38,128 nucleotides of DNA from contig CAYSJY010000001.1 in NCBI GenBank assembly GCA_964431705.1, forward strand, positions 1 through 38,128, given 5' to 3'. Under the pieces are notes generated by a model. It was not told where the DNA came from and did no database searches. It saw only the letters and a list, made by a program, of their open reading frames with translations. This DNA comes from an uncultured Muribaculaceae bacterium (lineage in GTDB: Bacteria; Bacillota_I; Bacilli_A; RF39; UBA660). The position numbers and the translations under genes are program-made. This document shows, piece by piece, positions 731 through 18,269 of the stretch; within the stretch, counting starts at the first letter, position 1, and every line of letters begins with the position of its first letter.

Positions 731-2062
731 TTATGCTGGTATTGTTAGTTGCTGACCTATTTGGAGAATATCTGAGGTAATATTATTTAATTTTTTAATG
801 TCATCAACCGTGGTGTTATAAGTATTTGCAATAGTCCATAAAGTATCTCCTTTTTGAACAGTATATAACTTATATTTGCTTGTTGTTGGTATTATTAATG
901 TTTGACCTATTTGAAGTGTGTTAGAAGTCAGGTTATTAGCGCTTTTTATTTCATCAACAGTGGTATCATACGTATTTGCTATTTTCCATAAGCTATCACC
1001 TTTTTGAACGGTATATACTATTTGATTTATGGTATCACTTGTTGGTAATATTAATATTTGTCCAATGGATAAAAGATTAGATGATAAATTATTAATGCTT
1101 TTTATTTCATCGACCGTGGTATTATATTTACTAGCAATTGAGTATAAGGTATCCCCACTTTTAACTGTATAAGTGTTTTCATTTTCTTCACTTTCACTAT
1201 CTGTTGGTAATTTTAGAATTTGACCTATCTGAAGTGTATTAGATGTTAAATTATTTAAAGTTTTTAACTCATCAACCGTAGTGTTATATTTATTAGCAAT
1301 TGAGTATAAGGTATCCCCACTTTTAACTGTATAAGTGTTTTCATTTTCTTCACTTTCACTATCTGTTGGTAATTTTAGAATTTGACCTATCTGAAGTGTA
1401 TTAGATGTTAAATTATTTAAAGTTTTTAACTCATCAACCGTAGTATTATATTTATTAGCAATTGCCCAAAGAGTATCTCCTGATGATACTATATAATAAC
1501 CATCTAAATTTTCAGGTAAGTAACTTATGTTAGTATATGCTGCTATTGCTTTTACCACTGCCTCCGCTAATACTTCTTGATTTTCTTTTAAAAATGATGC
1601 TTCATCTTCGTCTGAAACATTACCATAATCAATTACAATTGTTTGATTACTTCCAGTATTTCTAATTAAATAATCATCATCTAACGCAGTGTCATCTTCA
1701 TTTCTTAACTGAAAATATTTTGTTACATTAGCACCAATGCTTTCTAAGTCAGTAGCTATCTCAGATGCTAAATTACTATTGTTTCTAAGCGGATACATTA
1801 TTTCTACTCCTGTATCTCCTTCGCTTCTTAGTCTGTTTGAAATTACTATTATATCATCGCCAGTACCATAGTTACTTTGAATAGCATTTATTTTTTCATC
1901 AATTGTTAAGTTGTCATCTTCATCCACAAAAAAACTTTCTATACCTAAATTATTTAATCTTTTAGCTATATAACTTGATATTTCATTAGTGTAGTCTTTT
2001 TCATTTATATCATTAGCGGATACGTTTTCATTAGATGAAGTAATCGCAACTTTGTAAGTCAT
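731..2062 (-). CDS. cell-wall binding protein: N-terminal Amidase_3-like domain (apparently lacking the His zinc ligands) plus five LysM repeats
   Basis: 443 aa with a GGAAAGGA RBS. Five copies of Y-x-V-x-x-GD-[ST]-L-[WY]-x-IA-x-x-Y-x-T-T-V-D-[ED]-[IL]-K-x-x-N-x-[LI]-[ST]-S-x-x-L-x-IGQ-x-L-x-[LI]-P, which is LysM. The N-terminal 180 aa follows the MurNAc-L-Ala amidase type-3 layout (EKD..., GVEIMY, IVIDYGNVS). Confidence 0.8.
   Translation of the reverse strand: MTYKVAITSSNENVSANDINEKDYTNEISSYIAKRLNNLGIESFFVDEDDNLTIDEKINAIQSNYGTGDDIIVISNRLRSEGDTGVEIMYPLRNNSNLASEIATDLESIGANVTKYFQLRNEDDTALDDDYLIRNTGSNQTIVIDYGNVSDEDEASFLKENQEVLAEAVVKAIAAYTNISYLPENLDGYYIVSSGDTLWAIANKYNTTVDELKTLNNLTSNTLQIGQILKLPTDSESEENENTYTVKSGDTLYSIANKYNTTVDELKTLNNLTSNTLQIGQILKLPTDSESEENENTYTVKSGDTLYSIASKYNTTVDEIKSINNLSSNLLSIGQILILPTSDTINQIVYTVQKGDSLWKIANTYDTTVDEIKSANNLTSNTLQIGQTLIIPTTSKYKLYTVQKGDTLWTIANTYNTTVDDIKKLNNITSDILQIGQQLTIPA
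1134..1457. repeat. near-perfect 2 x 162-nt in-frame tandem duplication inside the LysM gene
   Basis: Unit gcaattgagtataaggtatcc...tatatttattagca recurs with period 162 nt (54 aa: one LysM module plus the acidic TDSESEENEN linker). I see only one or two mismatches over the unit. Confidence 0.9.
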
Positions 2063-8961: not shown

Positions 8962-9279
8962 TTAATGGTACGTTTTTTCTATTTTAATTATGTCGTCAAA
9001 TAATATTTTACTGTTATTTAGGCAAATGATTTTATTTGCTTTATCTATTTTTTTAACCTTGCCAATTGTTTCTATATAATTTACGTTATGATAGTGTTTT
9101 ATTAATACATTATCAATTTTTTTAATGCTTAATATGGTTTTGTTAATATCGTTTAAGTTGTCTTCTGATAACTCTTTTTTATCATCTTTTTGTTTTTCTT
9201 CTTTTTCGATTAGTTCGTAAAAACCTTTTAAAGAGTCAAATGGTAAAAACTGTTTTGCTCTATTTAAGTTACTCTGCAT
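8962..9279 (-). CDS. yolD: YolD-like protein (accessory to UmuC/UvrX-type polymerases)
   Basis: 105 aa. N-terminal RAKQFLPFDSLKGFYELI block and C-terminal G.VKKID....I.L....I.FDDII.I, typical of clostridial YolD-like proteins. Overlaps the end of the polymerase reading frame by 11 nt, the usual uvrX-yolD arrangement. Confidence 0.7.
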   Translation of the reverse strand: MQSNLNRAKQFLPFDSLKGFYELIEKEEKQKDDKKELSEDNLNDINKTILSIKKIDNVLIKHYHNVNYIETIGKVKKIDKANKIICLNNSKILFDDIIKIEKTYH

Positions 9280-10512
9280 TATGACCTCCTATTAGTTTGT
9301 TTCTTTTTTTCTGTGTTGCAAAAGAAAGTAAGCTTATGCATTTTAAGATGGAGTCATTTCCATACTTTTCTTTTATTTCATTTATAATATTTGAAAGTTT
9401 ATCATCATCTTCTTCATTAGAAAATATGTTTAGCTGCTTTAGCTTTCTTTTTCCTACGTTTGTGAAAAACACGCTTATTTTTCTTATTTTGTACTTTGTG
9501 TTTGTTACGTAATCATGTTCACTTAAAAGTAATTCCGTTATTTTGCTTGTATTATTAGTTTGATAATCTAGTGTTTTAGAAACTTTTATGCTTGGGGCCT
9601 CATCTTTAGAATAACCTATTAAAAAACCTATGTGATCAGTAAATAAGTTTTCTTTTATAAGACTTAAATAAAGATTGCTAATCATTTCTTCAAGTACTAT
9701 TTTAGCTTGTTTATAATCATAGTCTTTATCTAGTATTTGGCTATTTGATATAGCATTTGATTTTGGCTTATATGATTTTATTTCTTTTATGGTGCATGGT
9801 TCTATTCCTTTTGAGTGATCAATTAAGAGTTTTGCGTTTATTCCAAAAGTTTTATATAATACGTTTTCGTTTGCTAAAGATATATCATGCATGGTTTTTA
9901 AATGTAGTTTGTTAAGTTTGTTTTCGGTTTTAACTCCTATTTGCCAAAAAACACTTAAAGGCTCGTAATACCATAATTTCTTTTTATATTCATCTTCATC
10001 TAAATAAGCTATATTATCTTTGTTATGCTTTGCCATTATATCAAGCGCTACTTTAGCTATCTAAAGGTTTGTGCCAATTCCGCATGTGGCGGTAATACCT
10101 GTTTTTCTTTTTACATCTTCAATTATTTTTTTAGCAAGATTATAAGCACTTTTGTTATATAGTTTTAAGTATGGTGTAACATATAAAAATGCCTCATCAA
10201 TAGAATACTGAAAAAGGTCAACATTACTTACGCATTTTAAGTATATTTTATGAATTAAAACAGAGTACTCCATGTATTTTCTCATTCTTGGTTTAGCTAT
10301 TATGTATTTTATGTTTTTAGGTATTTCAAATAATCTGCATCTATTTTTAACACCTTGCATTTTCATTTTAGGACTAACCGCAAGACATATTGCACCACGT
10401 CCACGCGTTTTATCAGCAACAACTAAGTTTGCTTAAATGGATCAAGACCTCTTAATACGCATTTAACAGATGCATAAAATGTTTTTAAATCAATACAAAA
10501 ATAAATATTCAT
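9269..10512 (-). pseudogene. disrupted Y-family DNA polymerase (UmuC/UvrX/ImpB type): one 1-nt frameshift plus one in-frame TAG
   Basis: Three collinear pieces. (a) MNIYFCIDLKTFYASVKCVLRGLDPFKQT-stop, with frame-1 TAG at 10423-10425. (b) After a 1-nt shift, ANLVVADKTRGRGAICLAVSPKMKMQGVKNRCRLFEIP...YSIDEAFLYV...TGITATCGIGTNL. (c) In-frame TAG at 10061-10063, where homologues have Tyr/Leu, then IAKVALDIMAKHN... to 9269. Rejoined length is about 414 aa, the normal size. Confidence 0.85.
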
Positions 10513-10552: not shown

Positions 10553-10659
10553 ATAACATACTTTTTTTAAAATGGAAAAAAATGGCAATATTTTTAACTA
10601 TAGCGCATTGCTATGTATAAACAATTATATCTTAATAATGTTATAAGGTAGGTGAATAG

Positions 10660-10688
10660 TTGTTTTGGGATATTAATTATGTTATAAT
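10660..10688 (+). promoter_or_regulatory. sigma-A type promoter with extended -10 for the 723-aa ORF
   Basis: TTGTTT, a 17-nt spacer, then TGtTATAAT (tataat at 10683-10688). It is followed by RBS AGGGTGGTGG and the ATG at 10718. Confidence 0.5.
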
Positions 10689-10717
10689 TTAATAAATAAT
10701 GGTGTAAGGGTGGTGGC

Positions 10718-12889
10718 ATGATATTCAGTAATAAGAACAATAAGCTATTAAATTTATTTGATAATATTGATAGTGATGATTGTAAATCAAAAATTAATAT
10801 ATTAATTGTTTTATTATTAAAATATGTGGATTTAATCAACTACAAACCTAAAATGGTTAATAATAAAGAATATAAAAAAACATTAATACAAAATAAAGAA
10901 GCGATAATGCTATATCTTAGATTAACTTTAGATGTTTTATGCGATCATAATATAAATGAAAAAATCTTAGATAATGAAAATTTGGATTATATATGTGATT
11001 TGAAAGGAAATCTTGATTTAAAATCTTTAAAAGGAAAAAAATTACTTCTTCAGCAAATCAGAAATTCTTTTGCCCATAAAAGTGGAAAAATAATTTTTTT
11101 TATTGAAGATGGTATTAAGAAAGTTCGATTTGATAATAAATCATGGTTTAGTATAAAAGTAAATGTCTCTGATATAAATAAGTTGTTTGAAAAAATAGAA
11201 GTTCTTAATGAAAATAACAAGGCCCAAAAGTTAATTTCATCAGCAATTTCTTTTGTTGACAAAAATGAATTTAGTAAAATAAAAGGTGATTCAAGTATAA
11301 TAATTTTATTGAACCTACTTATGTGTTATAACAAAGAAAGTATTTTTGATGTTTTTATGCAAACCCAGACATCATTTATAGATGCTTCGAAATTTGAAAT
11401 TAATTCTACTGAAAATTCGAGTCAATTTATAGATAAAGCAAAAAAAATATTCTTTGAAAGATATAATATAACATTTCATTCAGAAAAGGATAGATTATCA
11501 TATAACAATGAATGGAAAACTCTATTGGGGGATTATTCAAGCTCAATTTTTTCTCAATTAAATAATACATATAATATAGAAAATATGCCGTATGATACAT
11601 ATACTCGTAAGCATATTCCTGTTCCAATTTTTTTGAAGTATTTAAGGGATGCAAATTCTCATGGAAGGATAAAAATAACAGATGATCATTTTATATTTTA
11701 TAATCAAGAAAAAGGTAGTAATTCAAAACCATATTTTTTTATAAAAATACAAAAGCAAGATTTGATTGAATTTTTGAACAAAGATTATTTTGTAGAAAGT
11801 TTAATAACTTCAATTAATGAACACAGATCTGAGTTTTCAAAAAATTTTTATTTGCTAGAAAAGTCGGAATCTGCTAATTCTATCGCAAATTATATCGACA
11901 TATATAGAAATAGGATGAAAAATATGTCAGAAATAGATGTCATTGAGTATATGTATAAAAATAATAAATTTTCTTCATATCTAATGGAATTCCCTGATCA
12001 AGTTGAAGACTTTATCAATTATAGGTTAAATGATGGAACTTTATTATTGTCTCGTATAACTTCTTTTGAAAATATGAAAATCAATGAATTTCAAAAAAAA
12101 TTGGATGGTAATTACATTAGTGAATTTATGTCTCGTTGCCTTAATAAAGGTCAAAAATTGTATAGTAATTATATAGAAAATAATGATGATAGTTTTTTCA
12201 AAACATTATATTCTTTTAAAAGAAATTTGGATACATTTGAACCAAATATTATAATTAGTGAATTCAATGAATTGAGCAAAGATGATTCAAAAATAATATT
12301 TGAAGGTGCTGATGAAATAAAAGAAGAATTTGAAGAAGGGAATACATATTTAGACATTTCAGAAGAGAGTGCCAGAATTTTGGTTGAATTAGGAATGCAA
12401 ACAAGTAAAAGAAGAGAAATTGATAAAATAATGTTGGCTATAGGTTTAAGAAAAGATAAACAGGTTGATATGAATTCAACCGTTAAAGAAAAAAGATATA
12501 CAATAAAAAATATTCAAAAACATGGTTCATTGGCACATGTTTATTCAAATGCATCAAAAGAAAATTTAAAACTATTTATTAAGAAAAATAGAATGGTATC
12601 AATTGCAATATGCGTTGCTTTAGCTGTTAAATTTTTAAATTTGGGTGTTGCTATATGTGGAGACAAATTAGGATTTAACATTTCTTCATTAGACCCAGGA
12701 TTTTTATTCACGAGTTTATCAAGTACTTTGGCTTTGAGTTTTTCTATTAGATTTGCTGCTCGTACAAAAACAAAATTAGATAATGAAATATTAAAACAAT
12801 CAAAAAGAGCAAAAATGTATTCAGATGATGATATTGGAGGTGAACAGCTTGCAACTAGAAATAATGGATCAAATAACGTTAGAAAATAA
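10718..12889 (+). CDS. large hypothetical protein with two RX4H (HEPN-like) motifs and a C-terminal predicted TM hairpin
   Basis: 723-aa uninterrupted ORF in an AT-rich, stop-rich background, with a strong RBS. Motif 1 is QQIRNSFAHKSGKI (R115-H120, nt 11060-11077). Motif 2 is KYLRDANSHGRIKI (R310-H315, nt 11645-11662). Each is followed by a similar segment (WFSIKVNVSDINKLFEKI vs YFFIKIQKQDLIEFLNKD). Hydrophobic segments at aa 626-648 and 661-681. Confidence 0.6.
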   Translation: MIFSNKNNKLLNLFDNIDSDDCKSKINILIVLLLKYVDLINYKPKMVNNKEYKKTLIQNKEAIMLYLRLTLDVLCDHNINEKILDNENLDYICDLKGNLDLKSLKGKKLLLQQIRNSFAHKSGKIIFFIEDGIKKVRFDNKSWFSIKVNVSDINKLFEKIEVLNENNKAQKLISSAISFVDKNEFSKIKGDSSIIILLNLLMCYNKESIFDVFMQTQTSFIDASKFEINSTENSSQFIDKAKKIFFERYNITFHSEKDRLSYNNEWKTLLGDYSSSIFSQLNNTYNIENMPYDTYTRKHIPVPIFLKYLRDANSHGRIKITDDHFIFYNQEKGSNSKPYFFIKIQKQDLIEFLNKDYFVESLITSINEHRSEFSKNFYLLEKSESANSIANYIDIYRNRMKNMSEIDVIEYMYKNNKFSSYLMEFPDQVEDFINYRLNDGTLLLSRITSFENMKINEFQKKLDGNYISEFMSRCLNKGQKLYSNYIENNDDSFFKTLYSFKRNLDTFEPNIIISEFNELSKDDSKIIFEGADEIKEEFEEGNTYLDISEESARILVELGMQTSKRREIDKIMLAIGLRKDKQVDMNSTVKEKRYTIKNIQKHGSLAHVYSNASKENLKLFIKKNRMVSIAICVALAVKFLNLGVAICGDKLGFNISSLDPGFLFTSLSSTLALSFSIRFAARTKTKLDNEILKQSKRAKMYSDDDIGGEQLATRNNGSNNVRK

Positions 12890-13094
12890 TGCAAAATACA
12901 TTGTTGTAGATATTGCGAATAATAATTCTAAACAGTATTATTTATTGGTTAATGAAGATGACATAAACAATATTATGATTGCATACATAGATGGCAAAGA
13001 ACTTGTGTCAATTGAAAATAGAGATGAATTTAAGAAAATCTTAAAATGTTTTGACTCTGAAAAAATATTAAAAACATGTATATATAAAAATTGA
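12864..13094 (+). CDS. small acidic DUF1292-like protein, overlapping the 3' end of the 723-aa ORF
   Basis: MDQITLENNAKYIVVDIANNNSKQYYLLVNEDDINNIMIAYIDGKELVSIENRDEFKKILKCF follows the DUF1292/UPF0473 pattern (ITL..., Y.V......K.Y.LL...D......IA....G.EL..IE..DEF..I...F). The start is uncertain: ATG 12864, or GTG 12840 / TTG 12849 just after GGAGG at 12836. Confidence 0.5.
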   Translation: MDQITLENNAKYIVVDIANNNSKQYYLLVNEDDINNIMIAYIDGKELVSIENRDEFKKILKCFDSEKILKTCIYKN

Positions 13095-13256
13095 TAGTAT
13101 TTTAGAGATTGGATACGATAAACAAATAAGTGATTCTTTAGAAGAATATAATAAAGTTTATCAGAATAATAAATGTTAAAATATAATTATAAAAACTATT
13201 GACTCTCTAGTTAAGGTTAGGTTTAAGATTTGAAAGAAAAATAAGGAATAGATAAT

Positions 13257-13782
13257 ATGACTACGTTTATAAATGATGATAGAGTAATTGGTAAATAGAG
13301 TCTTATTGGAATAAATAGTTCTAAAGATATTATAACAATAAATTATTAGATGATGATTTTTCTATTAAAGAGTTGTACTTAATGGAAAAACGGTAAAAGA
13401 TACTGGGGTATAGTATGGACTTAAAGGTTACATAATAAATGGTAAGGAAAATCCATACGACGTAGAAAATGATTTAATGTTTGTTAAGGTATACGGAATA
13501 TTTGATGATAGTGAGTATAAGTATTCTGTTTAAAAAAAGGTTGATAATAAAAAATATAACGTAAAAGATTTTATTATTAAAGACGATATTAATAAAGACT
13601 TTGTTTTAGATAATAATTTAACAGGCAACTATATATGTATAGATAGAGTAGATAAAGAGGATCAATTTAACTTAACAACAAGCATTGGAAAGATGAGTTA
13701 TGGGTAGATAAAATGTCGATATATAAAGATGGTAACGTTTTAATATCATACACAGATAACTCTGTTAAAAAAACAAAATAAT
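13257..13782 (+). pseudogene. shattered remnant of an unidentified gene (multiple stops and frameshifts)
   Basis: Protein-like stretches appear in alternating frames (MTTFINDDRVIGK*, YGLKGYIINGKENPYDVENDLMFVKVYGIFDDSEYKYSV*, KKYNVKDFIIKDDINKDFVLDNNLTGNYICIDRVDKEDQFNLTTSIGK, DKMSIYKDGNVLISYTDNSVKKTK*). None exceeds about 60 codons. Confidence 0.35.
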
Positions 13783-13787
13783 AAAAG

Positions 13788-13988
13788 TTATTCAAAGAAT
13801 TTATCCATAGTTATTCCTAATACTACAGATATTTTATATAGTGTTTCAATAGAGCAACCGATTGCTCCTTTTTTATATTCTAATCTTCTTATAAAGTCAT
13901 AATATTTACTGGCTTCAACAGCTAATTATTCTTGTGTGATTCCAACTTTTAATCTATATTTCTTAATATTATTAGATGCTTTTATCAT
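13788..13988 (-). pseudogene. XRE-family HTH regulator with an in-frame TAA (codon 21)
   Basis: Minus-strand reading MIKASNNIKKYRLKVGITQE-TAA-LAVEASKYYDFIRRLEYKKGAIGCSIETLYKISVVLGITMDKFFE. This is the canonical Cro/C1 HTH (R...G.TQE[QE]LA......I...E.G.....I.TL..I...L). The stop (13926-13928) replaces the usual Gln/Glu and is one nt from CAA/GAA. Confidence 0.65.
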
Positions 13989-14154
13989 GAATTTATCATC
14001 AAAGTTAAATTTTCTTTTGAATGTTGCCAATATAATAACCTCATAATTATATTTTTTTACAATAAATTTTACACATTTAATAATAAAAAAATTGTATTGA
14101 TTTACTTTAAAATTATTATATGCTAAGATGAAGTTAAGGTAGGTGATATTGTAA

Positions 14155-14673
14155 ATGAATAATTATGATGTTTCATTAAAAGGTCTTAAGGATGCATATT
14201 ATCAAATGAACAACTATAATTTTACTAGGGATAATTCTGGTAATAGAGTTTTAGTTGAAAAACAAACCGGAAAACTTATTTATGATGAATATCTTATAAA
14301 TAAGTATAGGATGGTATTTGCATGGTTAGAAACTGTTAAGTCATGTTATGGAGGTGTGGATGGTAGTGTTACTAATATTATTACAAAGGAAACTGAAGAT
14401 TTAGCTTTTAGTGATCATGCACATAAAATTTATGCTATTTTGATGGAGAGAGTTAGAAAACAGTTGTTAAATGGAGTTAGTAAATATGATTTCTCTTCTG
14501 GAAACATTAGTAGTTCAACTAGACAAGCTGTAAGAGAAGGTTTGGATAGTGATGGTTTATTATTTGCAGATAGCCTTATATTTAATGGTGGCTGGCGTGC
14601 TTCTGCTACTGTTAATTGGGTGCAATATGCTATACCAAAATTAGAAAATGAAATAGGTCATAGAACTAAATAA
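14155..14673 (+). CDS. hypothetical protein (172 aa)
   Basis: AAGGTAGGTGA RBS. No recognisable motif. Stop lies 14 nt before the next gene's ATG. Confidence 0.6.
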   Translation: MNNYDVSLKGLKDAYYQMNNYNFTRDNSGNRVLVEKQTGKLIYDEYLINKYRMVFAWLETVKSCYGGVDGSVTNIITKETEDLAFSDHAHKIYAILMERVRKQLLNGVSKYDFSSGNISSSTRQAVREGLDSDGLLFADSLIFNGGWRASATVNWVQYAIPKLENEIGHRTK

Positions 14674-14687
14674 AATATGAGGTATGT

Positions 14688-15482
14688 ATGAAATTTAGTG
14701 AATTTAAAGAAGCGTTTAAACGTTTGAAAACTAATTATGAAAGAAAACAATTTATCCATAATAGAGTTAGTGAGTTGATTAATAATTCAAGTGCTGAAAT
14801 TATTGGAAAAGATGTATGTGGAGATTATTCAGGGTTTATTGCACCAGATACCGAAGTTGTATCAAACTCAAGTCCTATGTTTTCTAATATGATAATTGAT
14901 GATTTGGATATTTATGAAAATTTTATGGATTTTATAGAAAATAACGTCGATAATATATCAAGTGAGATATTAACTATAATGATTATTCAACGATTTGTAT
15001 GGAATTATTTTGGGTATAATGCTAAAGATTTATTGTCAAGAATGGACATATATAGTAGACCTGATTTAACGCCAGTATCAATTAAAGAACTAAAAGGTAA
15101 TGATATTGCTGCTTGTTCTGAAAGAAGTGCACTAGTTCAAAACTTATTAAAATTTTTGGGATTTGATACTAGTATTGTTTTTGGAAAGTTAAATAATAAT
15201 GAATCTCATTCTTATATAGTATTTAGGCCAGAAAATGGAAATTTTATAATTCTATATGACCCTATGAATCCAGTTCCGTATAAATATGTTGGAAAAACTT
15301 ATTATGGTATAGGGGTCACAAAAATAAGCAATAAAGAATATGAAAATTTAAAACAAGGGCAACCTATAAAATTCAATTATGATTTAGTAAGAAAAATATA
15401 TGGTGATAATAAAGAATATGAAGAAAAACCAAAAATTTACACTAGCGATAGTATCTTGTATAAAAAGGATAAACAAATTTAA
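14688..15482 (+). CDS. transglutaminase-fold (papain-like Cys-His-Asp) protein
   Basis: 264 aa. Core GNDIAACSERSALVQNLLKFLGFDTSIVFG...ESHSYIVFR...FIILYDPMNP fits the transglutaminase-like superfamily order: Cys143 at a helix N-terminus, His174, Asp191. Confidence 0.6.
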   Translation: MKFSEFKEAFKRLKTNYERKQFIHNRVSELINNSSAEIIGKDVCGDYSGFIAPDTEVVSNSSPMFSNMIIDDLDIYENFMDFIENNVDNISSEILTIMIIQRFVWNYFGYNAKDLLSRMDIYSRPDLTPVSIKELKGNDIAACSERSALVQNLLKFLGFDTSIVFGKLNNNESHSYIVFRPENGNFIILYDPMNPVPYKYVGKTYYGIGVTKISNKEYENLKQGQPIKFNYDLVRKIYGDNKEYEEKPKIYTSDSILYKKDKQI

Positions 15483-15499
15483 TGGTTATGAGGTTTAAT

Positions 15500-15738
15500 A
15501 TGAATAAAGAAGATTATATAAAATTAGTAAATGAAAAAATGGGTGGCAATAAAAAAACTACTAAAACAAATAGAAAAGTTTTATGATGTTTTAAATAACT
15601 ATAAACCCAAAATAAGTAACTATAAAGTAGGAGACTTAGTCCAACTAGATAAAGGAACATTTCTTCATGGGATATATAAAAGCTTTACTTCCTAATTGCT
15701 ATATTTGTAATTTAGATGGAAAGGTGATTATGGAATAA
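15500..15738 (+). pseudogene. frameshifted small ORF relic
   Basis: MNKEDYIKLVNEKMGGNKK runs into an A7 tract (15550-15556). The reading continues only in the -1 frame (LLKQIEKFYDVLNNYKPKISNYKVGDLVQLDKGTFLHGIYKSFTS*), then again in another frame (PNCYICNLDGKVIME*). Confidence 0.3.
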
Positions 15739-15757
15739 ATAAAAGGAGTTATGTTAT

Positions 15758-16963
15758 ATGTTTGAGGAAAAAAATATTTTATATGAGGGTGAATATGGTA
15801 TTAAAATAGAAGGAAAAATATACATCGTTCCTCCTAATCAATCACTGGGTTACAATTGTGGATTTTCTCTATTTATACCAAAGAACTGCCAGGAAAACAC
15901 TACATTATTAGTGCATTCTTGTAATACCGGTGGTCATGGAGTTACAAATGGAAAGTTAGATAAAAATAAAGCCTGTTATCATTTAGATGAAGCTAATGAA
16001 GCAGCTAAGCTTAGTTGCATTAATTTTAATTCCGGAATGTGGTATGCAAGTGATCTTCAAATGCCTGTTTTAACTCCTATTATTCCAAGAGTAGCTGGAT
16101 ATTATACACATGCTTTAGGAAGCAAGGTATATCATAATGATACATCTGGTTTAATTGAAGAACAAAAAAATAGAAATAATGATGAGAAATTGTCTATGGA
16201 AGAAATAGAAAGAGTAAAACTTCAGTGCACGAATTTACCAGAGCAATTAGTAAACATGATTAAAGCAGCAAAAGTATTTTTGGATTCAAAAGGGATTTCG
16301 GTTGATGACAAAGTAATTATGGAAGGATATTCAGCTGGATCTAAATTTGCAAATGGGTTTACTGCTCTTCATCCAGAGGTCGTAAAAGCATTAGTTTGTG
16401 GTGGAAATAGTGGCTTTGGAATATTGCCTATTAAAGAAATGGATGGTTATGATTTAAATTTTCCGTTAGGAGCAAATGATGTTTCAAACTTTAATGAAAG
16501 AGAATTTAAGAGTATCCCACAGCTTTATTACATAGGTACTGAGGATTATAATGATCCTGCCATGTATAAATGCAATTTTAAAAAAGATGAAAGTGGCAAA
16601 TATCTTAAAGACTATGAAGGTTATTATATTCCAGTTACTGATGAAAAAGGAAATATAATTCCAATATTAGATGATGAAGGAAAAATAATGCCTAGATACA
16701 GTGAAAACTATACACAAGATGAAATCATAAAAATTCATACACTTTTAGGTTCTAATCCTCAAACAAGATTTGATAATAATATAAAAATGTATAATAAGTT
16801 GGGTGTTAATGCAATTTTTAAGAAATTTCCAGGAACTCATAATAGCGTCACTATGAATCATGATGGATCTTATGTGTACACAAATGAATGGGTTAAATCA
16901 TTTATTAAAAAAGTTTTAGCTAAAGAAAAAATAATTAGTGAAGAAACGAAAAAACATATTTAA
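15758..16963 (+). CDS. alpha/beta-hydrolase-fold protein (putative esterase)
   Basis: 401 aa with an AAAGGAG RBS. Nucleophile elbow G-Y-S-A-G (IMEGYSAGSKFA). Downstream acidic IGTEDYND and FPGTHNS are candidates for the Asp and His of a triad. Confidence 0.6.
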   Translation: MFEEKNILYEGEYGIKIEGKIYIVPPNQSLGYNCGFSLFIPKNCQENTTLLVHSCNTGGHGVTNGKLDKNKACYHLDEANEAAKLSCINFNSGMWYASDLQMPVLTPIIPRVAGYYTHALGSKVYHNDTSGLIEEQKNRNNDEKLSMEEIERVKLQCTNLPEQLVNMIKAAKVFLDSKGISVDDKVIMEGYSAGSKFANGFTALHPEVVKALVCGGNSGFGILPIKEMDGYDLNFPLGANDVSNFNEREFKSIPQLYYIGTEDYNDPAMYKCNFKKDESGKYLKDYEGYYIPVTDEKGNIIPILDDEGKIMPRYSENYTQDEIIKIHTLLGSNPQTRFDNNIKMYNKLGVNAIFKKFPGTHNSVTMNHDGSYVYTNEWVKSFIKKVLAKEKIISEETKKHI

Positions 16964-17113
16964 AAAATATGCATTATAAAATGTAAACGACTGACTTATG
17001 AATAAGTATTTAAAATCATGTTATATATAGAGTATTTTTATATATGTAAAAAGTAGAAAAATTTTCTAACCAATTAACTTAAAAAAACACTATATTAGTG
17101 AAAGGTGATAAAG

Positions 17114-17587
17114 ATGGATAAAATATATGATAAATATTACTATAAAATATATAATTGGGCATTAAATAAAACAAATAATAAAGAAGATGCTGAAGATTTA
17201 ACAAATAGTGTTTTCTTATCTATATTTGAATATTTAAATAAAGATATTAAAGTTGAAAAACTTGAAAATTTAATATGGAAAATTGCTTATAATTTATGGT
17301 GCACCAAAGCAAAAGGCTACATTAAAGAAAAAAATAATACTGATTTTAATGAGGAACATCAGATTGGATATGAAACAAATATGTTAGATAAGATTATATA
17401 TAAAGAAATAGTAAATAATTTAGATGATATAGGATTAACTAAAAAAGAAGCGTTATCATTTAAAATGTATTATTTAAATGACCTTTCAATAAAAGAGATT
17501 AGTGATAAGTTAAATCTTTCACAATCAAATATAAAATACTATTTATATAGTGCTAGAAATAAGGTAAAGGAGAGATATTATGAATAA
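17114..17587 (+). CDS. sigma-70 family RNA polymerase sigma factor (two-domain, ECF/TcdR-like)
   Basis: 157 aa. Region-2-like EDAEDLTNSVFLSIFEYL...IWKIAYNLW and region-4 HTH LSIKEISDKLNLSQSNIKYYLYSARNKVKE. ATG at 17114 follows AAAGGTGA. Confidence 0.75.
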   Translation: MDKIYDKYYYKIYNWALNKTNNKEDAEDLTNSVFLSIFEYLNKDIKVEKLENLIWKIAYNLWCTKAKGYIKEKNNTDFNEEHQIGYETNMLDKIIYKEIVNNLDDIGLTKKEALSFKMYYLNDLSIKEISDKLNLSQSNIKYYLYSARNKVKERYYE

Positions 17588-18269
17588 TTTAAATCTAGAT
17601 AAGTATTTAAATATTACAAACAAAGAAAAAATAAAAAGAGGGTTAGAAAATTTTATACCGTTATATCCAATGTTAAGAGTAGAAAATAAAAAATTATATG
17701 TTGGTGTAATGATAACTGATGAAAAAGATAATGTTTGGAGTAAAGACGAACAAATCAAAGCTGAATATTGGGTTTTAATTGATATTGAAACTGATAAAAT
17801 ATTAGAATTTAATAAGACTGATGAAAAAGATTTTGTCTGTGGTAAATTAATTTTAAAAGATACCAAAAGTAAAGAGAAAGAAATGTCAAAATATACTGTG
17901 GAAAAAACTTTACAATATAAAGATTATTTGATTAATGACATTAAAAATGAAAAATTACCATTACAAAAAAAATTAGCGGACATATTAGGTGACAATATGA
18001 AAATAGATGGTGAGGAGGTAAATATAAATGATTATTTATTATCTAATTTGGAAGAAGATATTAAACAAAAGATAGATGATTTAGTTGATATATTAGTACA
18101 ATCAAAATATGGCTCTATAACATTTTATTATGATAATTTATTTACTCAAATTATTAATGAATATAAAAAAGATGGAACTATTAGTAATGATAAAATTAAG
18201 TTATGCATAGAAATTATGAATAACTATTATGATGGAGTAATTGCAATAGATAATTTCTTTAATATATAA
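17580..18269 (+). CDS. hypothetical soluble protein translationally coupled to the sigma factor
   Basis: 229 aa. The ATG overlaps the sigma stop by 8 nt. No TM segment and no recognisable anti-sigma zinc motif. Confidence 0.6.
   Translation: MNNLNLDKYLNITNKEKIKRGLENFIPLYPMLRVENKKLYVGVMITDEKDNVWSKDEQIKAEYWVLIDIETDKILEFNKTDEKDFVCGKLILKDTKSKEKEMSKYTVEKTLQYKDYLINDIKNEKLPLQKKLADILGDNMKIDGEEVNINDYLLSNLEEDIKQKIDDLVDILVQSKYGSITFYYDNLFTQIINEYKKDGTISNDKIKLCIEIMNNYYDGVIAIDNFFNI

Follow-up and report, generated by a model that had tools for sequence, protein, structure and literature searches.

A probable twin-HEPN protein and its overlapping DUF1292-like partner, encoded in a variable chromosomal islet of an uncultured gut bacterium

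HEPN ribonucleases (RNases), HEPN dyads such as that of Csx1 (MJ1666 type) and HEPN proteins fused to transmembrane (TM) segments are each already known. Proteins of the pEK499_p136 family (PF18736) are single-domain, about 160 aa long, found mostly in Proteobacteria and Bacteroidota, and presumed to be homodimers. In the RnlA–RnlB pair, a large multidomain HEPN gene is followed directly, on the same strand, by a small partner gene. The RNase LS family is a HEPN family, and Csx1 of the MJ1666 type has a HEPN dyad in one chain, with a β-hairpin straight after the Rx4-6H motif (PMC3710099). Cas13 has been proposed to descend from the fusion of two defence-type HEPN genes (PMC12165695). Here we describe a two-gene cassette in a 38,128-nt stretch of DNA from an uncultured bacterium (contig CAYSJY010000001.1 of assembly GCA_964431705.1; this whole stretch is called the window). 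Its large gene (10718..12889) encodes a 723-aa protein with two HEPN-like motifs, from a family without a name, and its small gene (12849..13094) a DUF1292-like protein. All coordinates refer to the + strand unless stated otherwise. The cassette is new in joining a twin pEK499_p136-like unit, a helical domain and a hydrophobic hairpin with a DUF1292-like partner.

Like pEK499_p136 proteins, the large protein has a helix that closes with R-N-x-x-A-H and is followed by short strands and a helix of the 'ELLxFL' type. Yet its single 723-aa chain holds two diverged units and some 350 residues more, and it comes with a small partner of its own. With Cas13, including compact Cas13an, it shares two HEPN-type motifs per polypeptide. 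An earlier reading of this DNA from its letters alone (the original prediction) took two HEPN sites in one chain to be the hallmark of Cas13; the trait is not exclusive, as a HEPN dyad is listed for Csx1 (PMC3710099). Unlike Cas13 loci, the cassette has no CRISPR array, conserved non-coding RNA or cas genes, and its HEPN lineage appears pEK499_p136-like, as opposed to AbiD/F-like in Cas13. PADLOC, a profile search of the PDB and Foldseek were all negative for Cas13 similarity by sequence or fold. Csx1 is a precedent for both the one-chain dyad and the β-strands inserted after the motif, but it is fused to a CARF/Rossmann sensor and is CRISPR-associated, neither of which is true of the window protein. 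RnlA–RnlB, LsoA–LsoB and other HEPN toxin/antitoxin pairs differ in having a single HEPN domain per chain, in being dimeric, and in having antitoxins unrelated to the small partner seen here. That partner resembles DUF1292/UPF0473 (YrzB-like) proteins; canonical DUF1292 genes adjoin ruvX, whereas this one adjoins a HEPN-like gene.

The large open reading frame (ORF) is intact, begins with ATG and encodes 723 aa, just as first described. Exactly two Rx4H matches occur in the protein, RNSFAH at aa 115–120 (11060..11077) and RDANSH at aa 310–315 (11645..11662), the same two positions picked out in the original prediction. Each is of the extended type R-[ND]-x3-H-(x0-2)-G: R115-N-S-F-A-H120 is followed by KSG (RNSFAHKSG) and R310-D-A-N-S-H315 by G316 (RDANSHG). 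Each copy also has a polar residue straight after the arginine, as is characteristic of HEPN Rx4-6H motifs (N, D or H). Only 26 arginines and 9 histidines are present in the whole protein, and shuffling it 20,000 times with its composition kept gave at least two R[NDH]x3H strings with P = 0.0012. Two G-extended copies arose in none of these shuffles. With conservation extending to 18–25% identity, these statistics answer the caveat, attached to the first description, that a string as short as RX4H may be chance: it is not.

In an alignment of 24 family sequences, R310, H315, G316 and I318 are invariant, and Q113, I114, R115, N116, A119, H120, K121 and G123 are at least 90% conserved. A wider alignment of 25 sequences goes down to 18% identity and takes in short relatives (444–536 aa) that lack the C-terminal half. 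There, H120, R310, H315 and G316 are still invariant, and N116 remains at least 90% conserved. Judged by these alignments, the motif residues are the most constrained positions of the family. Because the motifs are kept across the wide alignment, short relatives included, the twin arrangement is ancestral to the family. The short relatives P0045, P0049 and P0050 (444–536 aa) keep both RNxxxH units and lack the small partner as well as the C-terminal half.

The N-terminal half of the protein consists of two modules, aa 1–185 (10718..11272) and aa 186–375 (11273..11842). Profiles of the two aligned with each other in hhalign at Prob 94.8% and E = 5e-8 over 56 columns, spanning the motif helix, the strands and the next helix; the duplicated stretch after each motif that had been noticed at the outset is thus genuine. 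AlphaFold2, run with the family alignment, gave models of the full-length protein (predicted local distance difference test score, pLDDT, 83.6; predicted template-modelling score, pTM, 0.81) and of aa 1–375 (pLDDT 82.8, pTM 0.86). DSSP, applied to these models, assigns to module 1 a set of helices including the motif helix (aa 104–119), three strands (aa 124–149) and a helix at aa 150–160. Module 2 is predicted to have a conserved LLMCYNKES helix, an insert, the motif helix (aa 302–314), three strands (aa 318–345) and a helix at aa 346–353. In both predicted structures, each motif closes the C-terminal end of its helix. HEPN domains have this motif where helix-3 ends and the loop to helix-4 begins (PMC3710099), and the modelled location in both modules agrees with this rule. 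Beyond the modules lies a middle domain (aa 376–600; 11843..12517) that is predicted to be all-helical, carries a conserved YMYxNNKFSSYLxExP block and has no known relative.

Several comparisons connect these units to a recognised HEPN family. Across 25 family members, the two best-supported Pfam near-matches both belong to the HEPN clan, PF18736 in two members and PF18737 in one. The distant member P0045 matches PF18736 ('HEPN pEK499_p136') in two stretches at 29.2 bits, compared with a gathering score of 26.6, and this match falls in module 1. The founding protein of the family, WP_000528932 of plasmid pEK499, carries the annotation 'HEPN family nuclease' and has a PF18736 match of E = 1e-49; from it we collected 32 diverse members as a reference alignment. 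Their layout, ...LIxKMRNSVAHF-strand-strand-strand-ELLPFLxYY, has the same order as both window modules. In hhalign comparisons with this alignment, module 2 scored Prob 88.5% (E = 2.7e-6) and module 1 Prob 12–64%. A profile pooled from all 50 units reached Prob 89.2% (P = 2.2e-6), against P = 0.05–0.6 for reversed-sequence decoys; the C-terminal half of the protein, as a control, gave Prob 0.1%. We also built a hidden Markov model (HMM) from the 32 sequences, used solely to show consistent register. The register was always correct on both modules, and nine matches scored above every reversed decoy (decoy maximum, 4.1 bits). The match to an accepted HEPN family is therefore of moderate strength, and it is this profile link of the unit to pEK499_p136 (hhalign 88–89%) that sustains the HEPN-like interpretation first put forward. 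The large protein is not a member of PF18736; it probably descends from a pEK499_p136-like HEPN unit. As a candidate equivalent of the conserved N-terminal NCLLGLIVxPKE helix of PF18736, the LLMCYNKES helix of module 2 was rejected (hhalign Prob 0.5%, worse than decoy), and the N-terminal parts of the two families do not align.

The second gene of the cassette overlaps the end of the first. The original prediction had a 76-aa ORF starting at ATG 12864, with an overlap of 26 nt. The ORF is real, but that ATG is internal. The start codon that aligns with homologues is TTG 12849, as in the gene calls of related loci, and a GGAGGTG Shine–Dalgarno element is located at 12835..12841, inside the 3' end of the large ORF. 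Because both point to TTG 12849, this is most likely the start, giving a mildly acidic protein of 81 aa (12849..13094; isoelectric point 4.7, versus 8.7 for the large protein) and an overlap of 41 nt. An ORF of 81–104 aa follows the large gene in every main-subfamily locus examined (the window, L001, L005, L006, L009, L011, L012, L015/L024, L021, L022 and L026). The overlap is usually exactly 41 nt, and 35–38 nt in more distant loci; the exception is L005, where the large gene is truncated and the two genes are adjacent rather than overlapping. GGAGG or AGGAG sites lie 6–9 nt upstream of the partner start in five other loci. Thus, in the main subfamily, two co-oriented and translationally coupled genes are conserved together, as in toxin/antitoxin pairs.

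The small ORF and six orthologues match PF06949 (DUF1292) over most of the model, with a best E of ~1e-4. The 81-aa form scores 22.4 bits and the 89-aa form 23.9, where the gathering score is 24. The description of a DUF1292-like ORF was therefore apt: the gene is conserved and translationally coupled, and all seven orthologues match just under the threshold. Its family is as small as that of the large protein, with 40 clusters, and the most divergent members likewise sit at the end of a family large gene. The 41-nt overlap (12849–12889) and its equivalents in L001, L009 and L011 are dual-coding, conserved in two reading frames. One frame encodes the C-terminal tail of the large protein (...G-S-x-N-I-R-R), the other the N-terminus of the small one (M-K-I-E-L-M-D), and both stretches are conserved. 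The Shine–Dalgarno site of the small ORF falls on the conserved 'GG' in the KYSDxxxGG tail of the large protein.

The family of the large protein is extremely rare. It comprises 24 clusters among 5.8 billion proteins, and a profile search returned 31 representatives among 1.84 billion. It occurs in 5 of 185,579 species-representative genomes, all of them metagenome-assembled genomes of uncultured gut Bacilli or Clostridium-like organisms, and the closest is Candidatus Aphodocola excrementigallinarum (94% identity). No match to the window protein was found in Pfam, PADLOC, NCBIfam or PHROGs, and since these resources miss the family, its members are annotated only as 'hypothetical'. A profile search of PDB sequences with the large protein also gave no match. 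Among 2.9 million viral contigs there are no relatives, and megablast against phage and plasmid collections found no matches; on these grounds a phage origin was ruled out. A metagenomic member, P0024 (448 aa), has the N-terminal part of the family without the first motif region, followed by a Ras/Arf/Roc-type small GTPase domain (PF00071, PF00025 and PF08477). This may be a fusion that exists in nature or a chimera produced by assembly.

To assess selection, we compared the window with two relatives of about 93% nucleotide (94–95% amino-acid) identity. The ratio of non-synonymous to synonymous substitution rates (dN/dS), based on small counts of 18–80 substitutions per segment, is 0.28–0.32 for the whole gene. 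By segment, it is 0.12–0.17 for the twin-module region (aa 1–375), 0.26–0.28 for the middle domain (aa 376–600) and 0.66–0.82 for the C-terminal hairpin (aa 601–709). For the small ORF it is 0–0.05. Purifying selection is thus strongest on the twin-module region and the small ORF.

These data lead us, tentatively and with a little less than even confidence, to view the locus as a two-gene accessory cassette in which a single-chain twin-HEPN RNase is controlled by a co-translated small partner. The cassette is probably a new toxin/antitoxin-like RNase module. In the model we envisage, the large protein would carry two diverged pEK499_p136-type HEPN units, each with a helix ending in R-N/D-x3-H-G, a three-stranded β-meander and a further helix. 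By analogy with HEPN dimers and Cas13, the two units may pack as an intramolecular pseudo-dimer, with R115/H120 and R310/H315 forming one composite, metal-independent RNase site. The helical middle domain of ~225 aa and the C-terminal hairpin could serve regulation, localisation or both, possibly through membrane tethering. The DUF1292-like partner would be made by translational coupling from the mRNA of the large gene. It may be obligate, and is most plausibly an antitoxin-like inhibitor that would keep a potentially toxic RNase silent until a signal of stress or invasion. The original prediction spoke of a membrane-associated two-HEPN effector acting as a toxin or in abortive infection. Because the defence-island context and other parts of that claim are weak, abortive infection is only one possibility, and the toxin/antitoxin-like framing is better supported.

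A more specific version of this proposal is that two HEPN units of the pEK499_p136 lineage fused independently of CRISPR systems, that they form a composite RNase site, and that a DUF1292-like protein holds the site in check. Taken as a whole this is somewhat doubtful. If true, it would describe a previously undescribed toxin/antitoxin or abortive-infection system, and a natural parallel to the joining of two HEPN domains from which Cas13 is proposed to have arisen (PMC12165695). Fusion of two HEPN domains into a self-sufficient RNase would then have arisen outside the Cas13 lineage, from a different HEPN clade, and a compact RNase effector that stands alone with its own small partner would be added to the known bacterial conflict systems. 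The DUF1292-like fold would also acquire its first functional role, as a nuclease partner or inhibitor, and proteins that are widespread in Firmicutes and uncharacterised would thereby gain a testable function. The scope of such implications is set by a tiny family confined to uncultured gut Bacilli, and all that goes beyond sequence features is inference.

A number of observations weigh against the proposal of a HEPN-derived RNase under the control of a small partner. The window protein has no PF18736 match even at E ≤ 1, a level reached by 2 of 25 family members. Similarity to pEK499_p136 spans only ~50–60 columns round the motif (motif helix, strands and next helix), the N-terminal halves of the units do not align, and single members score at most 9.7 bits with the home-made HMM. 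The units are modelled as α/β rather than as a plain four-helix bundle. Foldseek found no HEPN structure in the PDB, with best E values of 0.68 for the full-length model and 1.2 for aa 1–375, so the HEPN-like fold expected at the outset did not emerge from this comparison. Because confident models retrieved no solved HEPN structure, HEPN ancestry is probable rather than proven. Matches to coiled coils, Polo-box domains and one RnlA (E = 4.3, prob 0.04) were all insignificant, and a search of BFVD with the full-length model gave nothing significant (best E = 0.11).

Further points of this kind come from the relatives and their surroundings. R115 is replaced in three distant members of the wide alignment, by T in P0034 and by S in P0038 and P0039. 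Of the four residues singled out in the original prediction, H120, R310 and H315 are thus invariant, but R115 is not. In these longer members motif 1 lacks its arginine (ITNAFSH, ISDIFAH) and motif 2 is intact, which suggests that the two sites are functionally asymmetric. The subfamily of P0021 and P0022 and the short P0045-type relatives have no small ORF, which is awkward for an obligate antitoxin. The gene for P0045 (L017 8001–9611) lies in a housekeeping block with dnaX, ybaB, recR, holB, a PSP1-domain gene and pth. Finally, PADLOC was run on 121 ORFs from the neighbourhoods of 13 loci as a census of raw counts, and clear defence genes occur only in L012 (a type II restriction–modification system and an OLD/AriA-like ATPase). 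The L005 neighbourhood has a STAND NTPase, and the remaining matches are generic enzymes. With known defence genes in ~1–2 of 13 neighbourhoods and no phage copies, the defence-island setting once suggested is not borne out. Because the census is so poor in defence genes, we describe the context as accessory and variable, and not demonstrably a defence island.

The shortage of defence genes and of phage-borne copies could instead indicate that the large protein is a HEPN-type RNase for physiological RNA processing or turnover in these gut Bacilli, whose genomes are small, with the DUF1292-like protein assisting it as cofactor or adaptor and not inhibiting it. The housekeeping block around P0045 fits such a role. 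Moreover, canonical DUF1292 genes in Firmicutes adjoin ruvX, a YqgF-family nuclease gene (PMC13014144), which makes a nuclease-partner function conceivable; this adjacency is a lead, nothing more. Yet a physiological enzyme would hardly be so rare (31 representatives in 1.84 billion proteins, 5 of 185,579 species), nor be expected between strain-variable flanks and, in the window, next to decaying genes. These features fit accessory or selfish genes and not housekeeping, and we regard the physiological role as unlikely.

We give somewhat less credence again to the idea that the RNxxxH units are non-catalytic, as they are in several HEPN families that bind ligands or proteins, and that the protein works as a sensor or scaffold anchored in the membrane. 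HEPN domains that are inactive or serve in binding do exist (PMC3710099), no nuclease was matched by fold, R115 is lost in three distant members, and the long helical middle domain and terminal hairpin would suit a scaffold. But H120, R310, H315 and G316 are invariant, the N or D after the arginine is part of a catalytic signature that inactive lineages usually lose, and dN/dS is lowest over the motif-bearing region. About equally improbable is that the units are not HEPN at all, and that a new α/β repeat fold came to share RNxxxH plus strands with pEK499_p136 by convergence. The profile–profile probability stays below 90% and covers only ~55 columns, single-sequence HMM scores are weak, and no structure was matched. 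A sequence search found no pEK499_p136-type protein with a solved structure, so the HEPN status of that family is itself computational. Convergence does not readily explain, however, why P0045 passes the curated Pfam threshold for PF18736, why both modules match in the same register with nine matches above every reversed decoy, or why the order of secondary structures is the same in both families while decoy controls are clean. A polymorphic exported toxin with a downstream immunity protein, an idea prompted by the order of a large and then a small acidic protein, a weak Imm50 match of the small ORF (E = 0.012–0.027) and a fast-evolving C-terminal region, is very improbable: the protein lacks a signal peptide and any delivery domain such as LXG, WXG or Rhs, its conserved and putatively catalytic part is at the N-terminus rather than the C-terminus, and the variable C-terminus is a helical hairpin and not a swappable toxin domain.

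The hairpin at the C-terminus is modelled as an antiparallel pair of long helices (aa 604–650 and 660–700; 12527..12817) and might insert into a membrane. Its hydrophobic tip (aa 626–648 and 661–681) is flanked by KKNR and RTKTK, charges that fit the positive-inside rule. The TM hairpin of the original prediction is marginal. Its first segment is clearly TM-like (aa 629–647; Kyte–Doolittle 19-mer of 2.35). The second segment (aa 661–681), however, falls below 1.3, the signal is weak or absent in several homologues (six full-length ones have no segment of at least 1.3), and the hairpin is the fastest-evolving part of the protein. Membrane association is possible on the basis of this model.

Upstream of the large gene, in a window with a GC content of ~25%, is a putative extended -10 promoter (10660..10688). 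TTGTTT (10660–10665) and TATAAT (10683–10688) are separated by a 17-nt spacer that terminates in TG (10680–10681). The elements named in the original prediction are thus present, but the site is under the -35 threshold of a generic promoter scan and so is not in its list, and the sites listed are no more numerous than in shuffles. For these reasons we treat it as a consensus match only. A purine-rich Shine–Dalgarno-like sequence, AAGGGTGGTGG (10706..10716), precedes the ATG at 10718. A 37-nt direct repeat has copies at 10619–10655 and 14110–14146, 70% identical and both terminating in TAAGGTAGGTGA. The first copy lies ~60 nt upstream of the large gene, with a 10-codon mini-ORF after it, and the second is the Shine–Dalgarno region of ORF 14155–14673. 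The repeat may be a chance match or the relic of a former gene start.

The window is chromosomal, with genes for an amidase-LysM protein, PNP, TspO, an ABC transporter, His_Phos and VTC among its contents, and the cassette sits in a variable islet. Flanks differ among strains that carry the same protein (L011 versus L012, L006 versus L008), and the right flank is strain-variable. As first described, there is no cas or MNT gene, and no CRISPR array was found, which holds for the whole 38-kb window. No tandem repeat or Rfam family lies near the large gene, and the only Rfam matches in the 38 kb are two distant tRNAs. We ruled out a guide RNA and a CRISPR array, since Rfam, TRF and a repeat search gave nothing and the upstream intergenic regions are as short as 32–52 nt in L009 and L005. 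A conserved upstream gene of 167 aa was also considered and rejected, because ORFs of about that length precede the large gene in the window, L016 and L018 but are unrelated.

The large gene had been described as the only large intact one among pseudogenised mobile-element genes. Decay is indeed evident on both sides, but the remaining neighbours are intact, and none of them is a mobile-element gene. On the left, a Y-family polymerase (UmuC/IMS) gene is split into halves at 9269–10036 (255 aa, IMS_C) and 10061–10366 (101 aa, IMS). An intact 417-aa ORF is present in the related locus L006, so the window copy is a recent pseudogene. A YolD-like gene (8962–9279) adjoins it, and the whole region 8962–10366 is on the - strand. 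On the right, ~1 kb (13095–14154) contains no ORF of 50 aa or more, and alignment to L006 reveals the remnant of a MerR-family gene lacking its 5' and 3' ends. Another ~2.8 kb is deleted relative to the near-identical L006, where it holds two genes of 228 and 544 aa.

Beyond this gap, 14155–18269 contains uncharacterised genes (172, 264 and 401 aa), an ECF-like sigma factor gene (17105–17587) and an overlapping 229-aa ORF. The uncharacterised block received no Pfam, PADLOC or PHROG assignment. Parts of it recur in L006 and L008, the L008 version having a protein that weakly matches HopA1. At the other end of the window, 731–2062 (- strand) encodes an N-acetylmuramoyl-L-alanine amidase with five LysM repeats. 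Within it, a tandem repeat at 933–1464, with a 162-nt unit in 2.4–3.3 copies of 84–95% identity, encodes LysM modules.

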